IMG/VR virus record: IMGVR_UViG_2711768020_000009
From: a virus
Taxonomy: Duplodnaviria > Heunggongvirae > Uroviricota > Caudoviricetes
Strand: one strand, 5' to 3'
DNA length: 4,222 nt
Shown here in pieces: positions 2,489 through 3,995 of the stretch. The stretch's first letter is position 1. The number at the start of each line of letters is the position of its first letter. Under the pieces are notes generated by a model. It was not told the origin of the DNA, did not search any database, and worked only from the letters and a program-made list of their open reading frames with translations. Made by a program: the position numbers and the translations under genes.

Positions 2489-2625
2489 TATTCATTCTTC
2501 CAGATTCCTTCCGGCAGAGCCTTATACTGAAATATACCTGGCTCAGGATATTGTTGAAAATATTTTATGTTTGTCAAAAATAAAAGTTCTGTTAAGTATT
2601 GATTGAGTGTTTGTTATACGGTCTA

Positions 2626-2952
2626 ATGGTTTTTTCAGCATTAAATATTTATCATTCATATGGTGTGGGTAGAGTGAATATTGATGAGGCGTCGGGGTGT
2701 TTCATCCTTAGGCAGCGTATTGATATAGTCAATGCAGCACGAGCAAAGGCCTTCAGCCGTTTGACAGTTTTGTTCTGTACTCCTGATCGTCTTTCGGGAA
2801 GAGACGTTATTATTCTGAATAGTGATGCTATACAGAGGGTTTGCGATGAGTTCATGGTTGCTAATTCAGAATTATTTGCTCTTGTTCAGGAGTACAACAG
2901 AATAGCCAGGACCTGTGGTATGGATGAACTTCGGATTACTCATCTGGGGTAG
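2626..2952 (+). CDS. Hypothetical cargo (moron) protein, 108 aa from ATG 2626 (ORF track starts at TTG 2599); function unknown
   Basis: Longest ORF in any frame between the tRNA and 3400. Hand-counted codons: 6 of 11 Arg are AGA/AGG and 3 of 10 Ile are ATA, i.e. enriched for the rare codons served by the adjacent phage tRNA. No convincing SD or sigma70 promoter upstream, which lowers confidence; it may be expressed by read-through from the Q-dependent late promoter. No family recognised. Confidence 0.4.
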   Translation: MVFSALNIYHSYGVGRVNIDEASGCFILRQRIDIVNAARAKAFSRLTVLFCTPDRLSGRDVIILNSDAIQRVCDEFMVANSELFALVQEYNRIARTCGMDELRITHLG

Positions 2953-3055
2953 ATACATATCTGGATTATCACCTGTTACGGTAAAAAGTGATTGCTTACT
3001 GTTTTTGTGAATGGCATTGCAGCAGCCGGATAATGTCAGTGCTGGCTGACGGTGT

Positions 3056-3063
3056 GCTGGTGG
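3056..3063 (+). other. Chi octamer 5'-GCTGGTGG-3' (sequence match only)
   Basis: Exact octamer read on the plus strand, within the small hydrophobic ORF 3033-3119. An 8-mer this common in enterobacterial genomes can occur by chance in 4 kb. Confidence 0.5.
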
Positions 3064-3343
3064 CGGGTGTGGTGGTTGTTGCTTTCCCGTTGCTGAAAAA
3101 GAAAACGCCAGACTGTTAGCCGGGTATCAGTTAGCGGGAGAAATTTTTAAATACTTCACAATTCAGGCGGTTGACTGTTGTCTGGTTTGCGGGGAGTTTG
3201 TTAAAAGAAACTGGCATGGTGAATCCCCCTGTGCGGAGGGGCAATCAGCGAGTAGGTATATGGGATAATCGCGGATTCAGGTGCTGGTACTGAATTCACC
3301 GGGAGGCACCCGGCACCATGCAATGGCACATAGCGCCACTCTC

Positions 3344-3380
3344 CAGCCCCTCTCCGGAGGGGCTGTTTATATTGATTTTG
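3344..3380 (+). terminator. Rho-independent (intrinsic) terminator, plus-strand orientation
   Basis: GC-rich hairpin CAGCCCCTC-TCCG-GAGGGGCTG (9-bp stem 3344-3352/3357-3365, 4-nt loop) followed immediately by the T-rich tract TTTATATTGATTTTG (3366-3380). The sequence on the other side of the stem is not T-rich when read on the minus strand, so it is oriented for plus-strand transcripts. Confidence 0.55.
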
Positions 3381-3396
3381 TCAGATGTGAGTAAAC

Positions 3397-3430
3397 TCCT
3401 TATGGACTTTGTTGTTTTAGTCCATAAGGA
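3397..3430. repeat. Perfect 12-bp inverted repeat TCCTTATGGACT-(10 nt)-AGTCCATAAGGA overlapping the stop codon of the minus-strand ORF
   Basis: Read directly: arm 3397-3408 is the reverse complement of arm 3419-3430, with loop TTGTTGTTTT. It lies exactly at the boundary between the GC-richer segment and the AT-rich module. Could be an mRNA 3' stabilising hairpin, a protein-binding site or a recombination scar. Confidence 0.7.
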
Positions 3431-3735
3431 CATATTTGCAGAGTGCAACGGTTATTAAAGCATTCATTCAATACGTTATCTGTATTTGTAGGGCATTCCT
3501 GGCTATTTTTGATTGAATTCCAGAATGTTTTATTGAATGGTACTACGTTGTAAATGGTTACAGGTAGCACTTTGTTATTGAGCATGATGCCTGTGTGAGT
3601 CAGTGTAAATATACTTTCAGGAGGTAAGAAAGCATCCGATTGATACCAGATTATTAATTTTATTTTACTCCATATGACTGAAAAAGATATTCCGCATGAT
3701 GGCTGGATAACTGTATCAATCACAATCCACTTCAT
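3400..3735 (-). CDS. Hypothetical protein (111 aa) in an AT-rich module, transcribed opposite to the phage late genes; function unknown
   Basis: ATG (complement of 3733-3735) is preceded on the minus strand by AAGGAA (complement of 3741-3746) at 5-nt spacing, a good Shine-Dalgarno. A sigma70-like promoter lies ~40-70 nt upstream on the same strand. Stop TAA is the complement of 3400-3402. Asn/Ile/Lys-rich with several Cys. No family recognised. Confidence 0.5.
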
Positions 3736-3775
3736 TTAGTTTCCTTGTTTATGCCTTGCTGGTGATGTTCTGAAA

Positions 3776-3802
3776 AGTATAAATGATATTTTTGAATGTA
3801 AA
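3776..3802 (-). promoter_or_regulatory. Candidate sigma70 promoter for the minus-strand 111-aa ORF (-35 TTTACA, 15-bp spacer, -10 TATACT)
   Basis: On the minus strand: TTTACA (complement of 3797-3802), 15-nt spacer, TATACT (complement of 3776-3781, 5/6 match to TATAAT). The spacer is at the short end of the allowed range. AT-rich DNA generates such matches easily, so this is a weak call that is made more plausible by the downstream SD and ORF. Confidence 0.3.
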
Positions 3803-3995
3803 CCATAGAGCAGAATTATTTTTCTGATGTTGTTTATTGTTTATTTAAATGCAGGGTGGTTTATATCTCGTCTTGTAGTTTATCCATGCATATCTGCTTG
3901 ATAATCAGGTTTTTATTTAAGGTATGGTTTTGTGTTTTTTCTGTATTACATGTCAGGTATTTTAAAGAATTATTTTTCAGATGGTGGAAAGAACC

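Follow-up and report, generated by a model that had tools for sequence, protein, structure and literature searches.

The supposed uncharacterised cargo at the stx-equivalent position of a lambdoid prophage is very probably a known iraL locus with an STnc100 small RNA gene and a partly decayed small-gene cassette

In the window, the 4,222-nt stretch of DNA that we analysed, the interval of interest is bordered by the flanks that a first-pass annotation had read from the letters alone, namely the Q antiterminator gene (1317-2171; Pfam Antiterm, 7e-55), a tRNA-Arg (UCU) gene on the left of the slot and a DUF1737-like gene on its right, all of which were borne out. Of the tRNA gene the 3' part is present (2437-2488, + strand; partial Rfam tRNA match with the anticodon loop CUUCUAA), while the 5' part is N-masked, and alignment to E. 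coli 042 places the full gene at approximately 2412-2488. The readable piece shares 95% identity with 933W argO, and a tRNA-Arg is annotated at the matching place in E. coli 042 and CFT073; ARAGORN reported no tRNA in the window because half of the gene is masked. The right flank is a 5' fragment (3981-4125, + strand; Pfam DUF1737, 1.5e-15) carrying the domain that forms the N-terminus of nanS-p-type esterases, and it is 84% identical to the 5' end of nanS-p of 933W. This gene is interrupted by the end of an IS600 element (approximately 4123-4222): positions 4121-4222 match an annotated IS600 end with 100% identity, and the homology with CFT073 and 042 does not extend past 4125. IS fragments are likewise present at the left end.

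Across 2437-4125, the window shares 99.2% identity with the iraL locus published for CFT073 and 99.6% with E. coli 042, both of which have these genes in the same order. Among 5426 complete E. coli genomes, 862 carry at least 80% of the interval. The slot had been said to hold nothing recognisable by an earlier reader working without search tools; in fact, annotation of the interval exists in hundreds of genomes.

Downstream of the tRNA gene, the + strand carries ORF108 (2626-2952), a member of phrog_2873, a phage family with no assigned function. The 108-aa, rare-codon-rich frame proposed earlier was confirmed, running from ATG 2626 to 2952 with 11% rare codons (AGA, AGG and ATA three times each) compared to 5.6% in Q. 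The longest form starts at TTG 2599 and has 117 aa, and the conserved core probably comprises 92 aa from GTG 2674; residues 1-92 of this core matched positions 17-108 of the 108-position phrog_2873 profile (5.6e-58). The full HMM scan contained 21 relatives, the remote ones being 91-106 aa long and starting at profile position 26, and the exact ORF108 sequence occurs on more than 1000 contigs. Compared with a 56%-identical homologue, dN/dS was 0.35 at a dS of 1.07. An AF2 model (pLDDT 71.6) has helices at 28-60 and 75-106, so that a two-helix hairpin is predicted. Neither Pfam nor NCBIfam matched ORF108 or ten further family members, the family profile retrieved nothing but noise from the PDB (E of at least 0.09), and Foldseek of the model against the PDB returned generic helical hairpins only (all E at least 0.28). 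PGAP leaves the frame uncalled in the two RefSeq genomes checked, CFT073 and 042. ORF108 is, to all appearances, a real, conserved phage gene, and it is the sole uncharacterised piece of the slot.

The genes that follow are in a different state. We aligned the window with E. coli 05_3471, Citrobacter braakii and a metagenome-assembled genome (MAG), in all of which a TerB-like gene (PF05099) precedes the DUF3927 gene. In the window, all that is left of a deleted TerB-like (tciA-like) gene is its final ~25 nt, at 2955-2978 (+ strand), followed by a mutated DUF3927 start in which the canonical CTGTGA reads CTGTTA (GTG to GTT); tblastn detected no TerB remnant elsewhere in the window. The DUF3927 (tciB-like) ORF itself (2988-3119, + strand, 43 aa) matched Pfam DUF3927 (PF13064; 1.7e-27, 95.6 bits against a gathering threshold of 25) and phrog_1470 'TciB-like' (7.8e-13), and is annotated as WP_000562553.1 in 042 and CFT073. 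It begins at an internal GTG and is devoid of the first hydrophobic segment of its full-length homologues of 50-55 aa, which is why it may be a remnant. Indeed, protein and DNA alignments revealed gaps of 15 nt and 5 nt, with the N-terminal piece in a different frame (SPVTVKSDCLLFL*), and the full two-segment architecture, with a GTG overlapping the stop of the TerB-like gene, was not found in the window. The part of the slot between tRNA-Arg and STnc100, hereafter sub-slot A, is therefore, as far as alignments tell, a decayed three-gene cassette that has kept the phrog_2873 gene intact, has lost the TerB-like gene by deletion and retains a 5'-truncated DUF3927 gene.

Next to this cassette lies an STnc100-family sRNA gene with its intrinsic terminator (3185-3374, + strand; Rfam RF02076, 132.4 bits against a gathering threshold of 47, model positions 1-206 of 206). 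A structured noncoding segment of ~450 bp with a strong terminator had been described here. The terminator stands, with a stem at 3344-3365 (+ strand; terminator scan) formed by a perfect 9-nt inverted repeat (9 bp, 7 of them G-C) and followed by a T-rich tail, and it is the terminator of STnc100; the noncoding segment does not, as 2953-3399 holds the DUF3927 ORF in addition to the full-length STnc100. The minimum free energy of the STnc100 segment, -74.6 kcal/mol, is only modestly lower than that of shuffled sequences (z = -1.86). STnc100 occupies an equal relative position in 933W (207.7 bits), CFT073, the Stx2k phage and two further loci (L005 and L012). For ORF108, DUF3927 and STnc100, a consensus promoter scan was at background (6 promoter-like sites versus 5.1 expected). 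The family has been described as prophage-borne and related to PasD sRNAs. Previous work located STnc100 75 nt downstream of stx2B, in overlap with EcOnc27, an sRNA bound by Hfq, and reported it as an Hfq-associated transcript (EcOnc27/sRNA103 in O157) that is detected by RT-qPCR in outer membrane vesicles (PMC12370729, PMC12711010).

On the other side of the terminator, the - strand encodes a 111-aa protein (3400-3735) that we identified as IraL, an RssB anti-adaptor of the IraM family, in its Shigella allele S74. It is identical to CFT073 IraL at 110 of 111 aa and at 334 of 336 nt. As the threshold for membership in the iraL subgroup of the IraM/IraL/RssC anti-adaptor family we used that of a previous study, at least 95% identity over the coding region (PMC4045071), which 3400-3735 exceeds relative to CFT073 iraL across the whole coding region; in the same study the iraL group was at least 95% conserved, the iraM group equally tight, and the two groups did not overlap. 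The protein passed the NCBIfam model NF007393 (PRK09919, IraM family; 162 bits against a cut-off of 121, residues 1-110 covered) and matched PDB 8TWD_A (IraM) at 6.3e-31. With K-12 IraM it shares 61% aa and ~70% nt identity, far from the near-identity of IraM proper, and homology to K-12 is limited to the iraM coding sequence (70%), the K-12 context being uninformative on the slot. The exact IraL protein is found on more than 999 contigs, and is named from Shigella sonnei/flexneri. Its single substitution relative to CFT073, L74S, is a common Shigella allele that adjoins interface residue 75, and the S. sonnei strain of PMC4045071 probably carries S74 as well.

The similarity to CFT073 extends to the expression signals. 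A 33-nt 5' UTR (TSS at 3768) and a sigma-70-type promoter occupy 3736-3802 on the - strand. The published 5'-RACE sequence was found at 3768-3737 (- strand) with one mismatch and had no chance match in 200 shuffles. The region from -100 to +33 is identical to CFT073 at 131 of 133 positions, above the 96% identity to CFT073 taken as the threshold for the iraL promoter and upstream region with its mapped sigma-70 TSS. Candidate hexamers, read from the sequence, are TATACT (3776-3781) and TTTACA (3797-3802), with a spacer of 15 nt. The description of this gene as an AT-rich, divergent ORF with its own signals holds for its composition (35% GC) and its promoter but not for its orientation, since it is convergent with the upstream + strand genes and divergent only from the DUF1737 gene. 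In terms of genomic setting, iraL belongs to a lambdoid prophage of the potB type, with Q and the tRNAs on one side and the lysis genes on the other, rather than to the K-12 iraM locus, and the gene order matches C_RS06675-C_RS06715 of CFT073, whose potB island is known to carry iraL (PMC4045071).

Based on these data, the interval very probably represents a known locus, that of iraL in a lambdoid prophage, and is a mosaic in which the STnc100 gene stands between two sub-slots. By type it is a match to the CFT073 potB-island prophage, in a Shigella-type copy carrying IS insertions, and the supposed unknown cargo is iraL, STnc100 and a partly decayed small-gene cassette in a prophage of Shigella/E. 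coli. The view of the slot as uncharacterised cargo has to be abandoned, as the 111-aa gene was studied experimentally in 2014 (PMC4045071) and the structured RNA belongs to a catalogued sRNA family. We found no evidence contradicting the identification of either iraL or STnc100. Because its content consists of a characterised gene, a known prophage sRNA and a partly decayed cassette, the slot is ordinary rather than new; little was added to what is known of iraL since its characterisation or of STnc100, a family that has been repeatedly discussed, and the one conserved small phage gene left uncharacterised, and unannotated by PGAP in CFT073 and 042, is that of phrog_2873.

The proposal that this is the stx-equivalent position was well founded. 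The tRNA-Arg, STnc100 and DUF1737 elements are collinear with those of 933W (with 71% identity for the STnc100 segment, next to the 95% and 84% of the two flanks), whose order is argO, stx2A, stx2B, STnc100, AsxR (- strand) and nanS-p with its DUF1737 N-terminus, and in phiSTEC1575-Stx2k stx2AB is likewise placed between tRNA-Arg and STnc100, the latter being accompanied by an IraM-family gene. In both phages, stx fills exactly the interval from tRNA-Arg to STnc100. As had been suspected, slot content varies among related prophages, with stx2, tciA-tciB (JLK-2012 and strain 05_3471) or, in the window, phrog_2873 plus DUF3927. The stx position thus divides around STnc100 into two sub-slots whose contents appear to vary independently of each other: sub-slot A holds stx2AB, tciAB, or phrog_2873 and DUF3927, and sub-slot B, from STnc100 to DUF1737, holds AsxR, iraL or an IraM-like gene. 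A search for related loci with alignment A4 returned three loci. Decay of known genes, which the first-pass annotation had named as the outcome that would overturn its reading, applies in part, given the deletion of the TerB-like gene and the damage to the 5' end of the DUF3927 gene. A degraded stx or porin locus was rejected, as blastn with the stx genes of 933W and the Stx2k phage detected neither stxA/stxB sequence nor remnants in 2497-3155, and the ORFs belong to other families.

How much of the slot apart from iraL is alive is less certain. It is possible, though rather unlikely, that this remainder is dead DNA, with STnc100 as a passenger and with ORF108 and DUF3927 as non-functional relics that a decayed tci-like cassette has left in a defective prophage. 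The deletion of the TerB-like gene, the lost canonical start and the indels of DUF3927, the disruption of the prophage by IS600 and other IS fragments, the missing PGAP annotation of ORF108 in 042 and CFT073 and the lack of a significant promoter would all fit. However, ORF108 is intact and has stayed open across ~30% nucleotide divergence at the dN/dS given above, it falls within a PHROG family, and its relatives of 91-106 aa, down to 22-41% identity, occupy the same position downstream of Q-type genes. Its spread, on more than 1000 contigs and with the interval in 862 complete genomes, also speaks against a relic. We infer that ORF108 is still a functional + strand moron or late-region gene and that the neighbouring rare-codon tRNAs help to read it.

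Cargo at this position had also been said to be often a virulence, defence or superinfection-exclusion function. Accordingly, ORF108 and DUF3927 could form a Ter/Tci-related phage-exclusion or membrane-stress module expressed from Q-antiterminated transcripts, a reading that we consider improbable. ORF108, DUF3927 and STnc100 do sit at the stx position on the strand of the late transcripts, TerB-like and DUF3927 genes accompany ORF108 in Citrobacter and the MAG, PHROG labels the DUF3927 family 'moron ... TciB-like', and ORF108 is enriched in rare codons beside rare-codon tRNAs. Yet PADLOC-DB returned no family for the ORF108 core, DUF3927 or IraL at E ≤ 0.01, on which grounds a defence system was rejected, no toxin signature was found, and the fold search with the ORF108 model was uninformative. 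Moreover, in the window the TerB partner is deleted and DUF3927 truncated, and a literature search found no experimental paper behind DUF3927 or the 'Tci' names, which are annotation labels.

The IraM residues that contact the N-terminal domain, the C-terminal domain and the helical linker of RssB have been defined (PMC10844676); in the window IraL, 5 of 5 residues at the N-terminal domain contact (cluster I) are conserved, while 2 of 5 positions for the C-terminal domain and 2 of 4 for the linker are altered. That the gene is instead the orthologue of K-12 iraM, controlled by PhoP/PhoQ, induced by low Mg2+ and clamping both RssB domains, is highly improbable: the RefSeq product name 'anti-adapter protein IraM', the passed NCBIfam subfamily model and a PhoP-box-like repeat (TGTTTA-N5-TATTTA at 3831-3847, 63-79 nt upstream of the TSS) would suggest it, but the protein is 61% identical to K-12 IraM versus 99% to IraL, with the promoter and mapped TSS included in the latter match, its context is a potB-type prophage rather than the e14-adjacent locus, changes are seen in the clusters that contact the RssB C-terminal domain and linker, and the repeat is not significant, with matches in 23 of 200 shuffles. 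We make no claim regarding PhoP regulation of iraL, as this single repeat is within chance expectation.

IraL has been characterised as an anti-adaptor of RssB through which RpoS is stabilised during log phase (Hryckowian 2014, mBio, PMC4045071). It binds the N-terminal domain as the sole part of RssB, and deletion of iraL lowered the level and half-life of sigma-S in CFT073 and its level in S. sonnei (PMC4045071). The 99% identity, promoter included, suggests that the window IraL would likewise bind the RssB N-terminal domain and stabilise sigma-S in log phase. In the growing lysogen, a sigma-70 promoter of its own would drive iraL, which lies on the strand opposite to that of the late transcripts; by binding the receiver domain at the N-terminus of RssB, IraL would keep this adaptor from delivering RpoS to ClpXP, as a consequence of which RpoS would rise in log phase. 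Experiments with the CFT073 and S. sonnei genes have demonstrated these steps (PMC4045071). The STnc100 terminator would end + strand transcription arriving from the tRNA/moron side. The expectation that the cargo is placed for high expression on prophage induction does not apply to iraL, which sits on the opposite strand behind a terminator and would be transcribed from its own sigma-70 promoter in exponentially growing lysogens; this promoter and the orientation against late transcription indicate lysogen-expressed rather than induction-driven cargo. More speculatively, ORF108 might be a functional helical-hairpin protein, encoded by the first gene of a phrog_2873/TerB-like/DUF3927 cassette that alternates with stx, and the convergent layout might couple induction to host stress physiology, if Q-modified late transcription were to read through the STnc100 terminator and run antisense across iraL, shutting off RpoS stabilisation. 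We regard this combined scenario as doubtful. The window prophage is degraded, with IS600 in the DUF1737 gene and IS fragments at the left end, and may have lost late transcription of the + strand.

Compared with known systems, the window shares with the stx2AB loci of 933W and phiSTEC1575-Stx2k its collinear flanks, tRNA-Arg on the left and STnc100 followed by DUF1737/nanS-p on the right, and with the latter phage a minus-strand IraM-family gene after STnc100, but it is devoid of stx genes; after STnc100, the minus strand of 933W encodes the sRNA AsxR instead of an anti-adaptor. EcOnc27/sRNA103 of the O157 Stx2 phages is of the same family as the window STnc100, with a full-length covariance-model match, the same terminator and the same placement between cargo genes and the DUF1737/nanS-p gene. 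The window copy is, however, only ~71% identical to that of 933W (132 versus 208 bits) and follows DUF3927 rather than stx2B, so that the reported 11-nt complementarity between STnc100 and stxB is without a target in this prophage. The tciA-tciB genes (TerB-like plus DUF3927) of stx-negative lambdoid phages, such as JLK-2012, occupy the same slot (Q, tRNAs, cassette, nanS-p, lysis genes) and share the DUF3927 family with the window, which in contrast has lost the TerB-like gene as well as the start and first hydrophobic segment of DUF3927, and which carries an additional upstream phrog_2873 gene, as do Citrobacter braakii and the MAG. K-12 IraM (b1160; structure 8TWD with RssB) belongs to the same family and is homologous to the window IraL at the level of the fold; locus and promoter differ, and the C-terminus of IraL is 4 residues longer. 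IraM contacts both RssB domains and is reported to be induced by Mg2+ starvation (PMC10844676). The RefSeq name 'IraM' masks a functionally distinct paralogue, IraL. The closest counterpart is CFT073 IraL (c1429), with the same promoter and mapped TSS and with Q, the tRNAs, DUF3927, STnc100 and a truncated DUF1737 gene as shared neighbours, from which the window copy differs by the IS600 in its DUF1737 gene and by the absence of the IS200C that CFT073 has between Q and the tRNAs.

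The window comes from an E. coli/Shigella-group lambdoid prophage, of which it is the late-regulatory region. Ns mask positions 734-1304 and 2216-2436, and the recognizable landmarks comprise the Q antiterminator gene (1317-2171; Pfam Antiterm, 7e-55), the unmasked 3' portion of a tRNA-Arg gene with a UCU anticodon loop (2437-2488; Rfam and alignment to phage 933W) and a DUF1737 ORF starting at 3981 (Pfam). This DUF1737/nanS-p-type gene is interrupted at the right end of the window by an IS600 copy: homology to the reference prophages of strains CFT073 and 042 ends at 4125, at the start of the IS600 end (4121-4222; 100% identical to annotated IS600 in E. 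coli 05_3471). On the left, positions 1-247 are a patchwork of IS-element fragments, including a segment labelled in other annotations as the IS21 istB end and, near 218-247, an IS3-family terminal repeat (IS2-like by our reading) with an orfA start on the minus strand; prophage DNA resumes at 248 with a helicase end, a small coiled-coil ORF (369-626) and RusA. CFT073 carries an IS200C element, with an STnc490 match (Rfam) on the 5' side, between its Q and tRNA genes (L004 21568-22159). In that strain, the slot would thereby be cut off from pR'/Q; in the window, the element would not fit into the 221-nt masked stretch.

The first-pass annotation had described the interval between tRNA-Arg and the DUF1737 ORF (2489-3980) as a cargo slot whose content it did not recognize. 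The moron slot it pointed out is genuine and its account of the features was correct, but the content is in fact iraL, STnc100 and DUF3927, all known already, or a decayed remnant. One small conserved phage gene, ORF108, is the only slot component left without a function.

The AT-rich 111-aa ORF noted there is present on the minus strand (3400-3735) and is iraL, which encodes an RssB anti-adaptor protecting RpoS (sigma-S). Its product passes the curated NCBI IraM-family model (162 bits, cut-off 121) and matches the crystallized IraM chain 8TWD_A (6e-31). While K-12 IraM shares only 61% identity with it, C_RS06710 of CFT073 is identical at 110/111 amino acids and 334/336 nucleotides; C_RS06710, also designated c1429, received the name iraL from Hryckowian et al. 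(PMC4045071). The mRNA 5' end that these authors determined by 5' RACE lies on the minus strand of the window at 3768-3737, with a single mismatch; its position at 3768 implies a 33-nt leader, and the region from -100 to +33 is identical to CFT073 at 131 of 133 positions. The identity of the gene, its promoter and its context was established by comparison in this analysis; for the essentially identical gene, it was shown that IraL binds RssB, slowing RpoS degradation by ClpXP, and that growing lysogens transcribe iraL from a sigma-70 promoter of its own (PMC4045071). In the same study, deletion of iraL lowered the log-phase level and half-life of sigma-S in CFT073 and the amount of sigma-S in Shigella sonnei, and K-12 given iraL with its native promoter had more sigma-S (PMC4045071).

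Two further elements lie at or close to the gene. An inverted repeat at 3397-3430 (perfect over 12 nt, 10-nt loop) overlaps the iraL stop and last codons. Lacking a clear minus-strand U-tract, it may act as a 3' stabilizing hairpin or a weak terminator for iraL. A PhoP-box-like direct repeat, TGTTTA-N5-TATTTA, lies at 3831-3847, 63-79 nt upstream of the transcription start; as such a match arose in 23 of 200 shuffles and is within chance expectation, it is no evidence for PhoP control.

At codon 74 (3514-3516, minus strand), the window encodes Ser, whereas CFT073 IraL, K-12 IraM and the homologue from an Stx2k phage carry Leu. The identical protein, present in more than 999 contigs, is the allele common in Shigella, which fits the IS600 insertion; taken together, the two point to a Shigella origin for the window. 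Position 74 adjoins residue 75, a contact to the RssB C-terminal domain in the structure of IraM. When the IraM residues contacting RssB in the crystal structure (PMC10844676) were mapped onto the window protein by alignment, the cluster touching the RssB N-terminal domain was conserved at 5/5 positions, and those touching the C-terminal domain and the helical linker were changed at 2/5 and 2/4 positions, respectively. Such a pattern would be consistent with the published N-terminal-only IraL-RssB interaction.

The segment of about 450 bp taken initially as noncoding holds both a DUF3927 ORF and a full-length match to the prophage sRNA STnc100 (3185-3374, plus strand; Rfam, 132.4 bits against a gathering score of 47). 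The strong plus-strand terminator reported there was recovered (stem 3344-3365) and is the 3' end of STnc100. A minus-strand pseudo-CDS at 3204-3329, annotated in RefSeq genomes as 'hypothetical protein, incomplete', falls wholly inside the stretch matched by STnc100; probably the sRNA gene was spuriously called as coding.

Between tRNA-Arg and STnc100 (sub-slot A), the window is partly decayed when aligned with its relatives. Citrobacter braakii and a metagenome-assembled contig carry, in this order, a homologue of ORF108 (92-95 aa), a TerB-like gene (PF05099, 141 aa), DUF3927 (50 aa) and a holin. In the window, only the final ~25 nt of the TerB-like gene are left, starting a few bases past the ORF108 stop (2952), and the GTG start of DUF3927, which normally overlaps the TerB stop, reads GTT. 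Past this mutated start there are gaps of 15 and 5 nt, and the N-terminal piece is in a different frame, with a stop at 3010. The annotated 43-aa DUF3927 ORF (2988-3119; Pfam, 1.7e-27) uses an internal GTG start and is without the first hydrophobic segment. This decayed allele is common to CFT073, 042 and 862 of 5426 complete E. coli genomes (those carrying at least 80% of the slot interval).

ORF108 is a real gene. The 108-aa plus-strand ORF lies at 2626-2952 (its longest form, from TTG 2599, has 117 aa) and is rich in rare codons, as first proposed (11% of codons versus 5.6% in Q). Copies of high identity occur in E. coli and Shigella only, and in a 56%-identical copy the frame has stayed open across ~30% nucleotide divergence (dN/dS 0.35, dS 1.07). 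An exhaustive HMM scan returned 21 relatives. Those that are remote, at 22-41% identity and 91-106 aa in length, share the motifs ERAxAFSRLTVLFCTPDR and ANxELxxLVQEYN. Because these start at profile position 26, the true protein is probably a 92-aa core from GTG 2674. Relatives likewise occur downstream of Q-type genes and tRNAs, and one is downstream of a YdeO/GadX-like AraC regulator. ORF108 belongs to phrog_2873, a function-unknown family, and had no sequence match in Pfam, NCBIfam, PADLOC or PDB; its AlphaFold model is a two-helix hairpin (pLDDT 71.6), for which Foldseek returned generic coiled hairpins only.

As for expression, iraL is oriented against the late transcript, behind the STnc100 terminator, which would shield it from plus-strand transcription except with Q-modified RNA polymerase. 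ORF108 would be a functional plus-strand gene, aided by the adjacent rare-codon tRNAs.

The proposed equivalence to the stx position held up, and the slot is the stx position. Window and 933W are collinear across tRNA-Arg (95%), the STnc100 region (71%) and the nanS-p 5' end (84%). The annotated order in 933W is argO, stx2A, stx2B and nanS-p, with STnc100 (Rfam, 207.7 bits) 75 nt downstream of stx2B and the minus-strand sRNA AsxR (L011 3985-4037) between STnc100 and nanS-p, in the sub-slot and orientation of iraL in the window. In phiSTEC1575-Stx2k, stx2AB lies between tRNA-Arg and STnc100, followed on the minus strand by an IraM-family gene (L006 6512-6835). YdeO/GadX-like AraC-family regulator genes also occur in the Q-to-lysis interval, directly upstream of the ORF108 homologue at one locus (L005 164-889) and, 59% identical, upstream of the tRNAs in the Stx2k phage (L006 4001-4714), forming another host-regulator cargo class in the slot. 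From the collinearity with both phages, the region consists of two sub-slots flanking a conserved STnc100. Sub-slot A holds stx2AB in Stx phages, tciA/tciB (TerB-like and DUF3927) in JLK-2012 and E. coli 05_3471, and ORF108 with DUF3927 in the window; sub-slot B (STnc100 to DUF1737) holds AsxR in 933W, iraL in the window and the IraM-like gene in the Stx2k phage. The protein of the latter is 72% identical to window IraL and 65% to K-12 IraM, and therefore represents a third IraM-family subgroup, so that a homologue of an RpoS-stabilizing anti-adaptor may travel alongside Shiga toxin in an Stx2k-converting phage.
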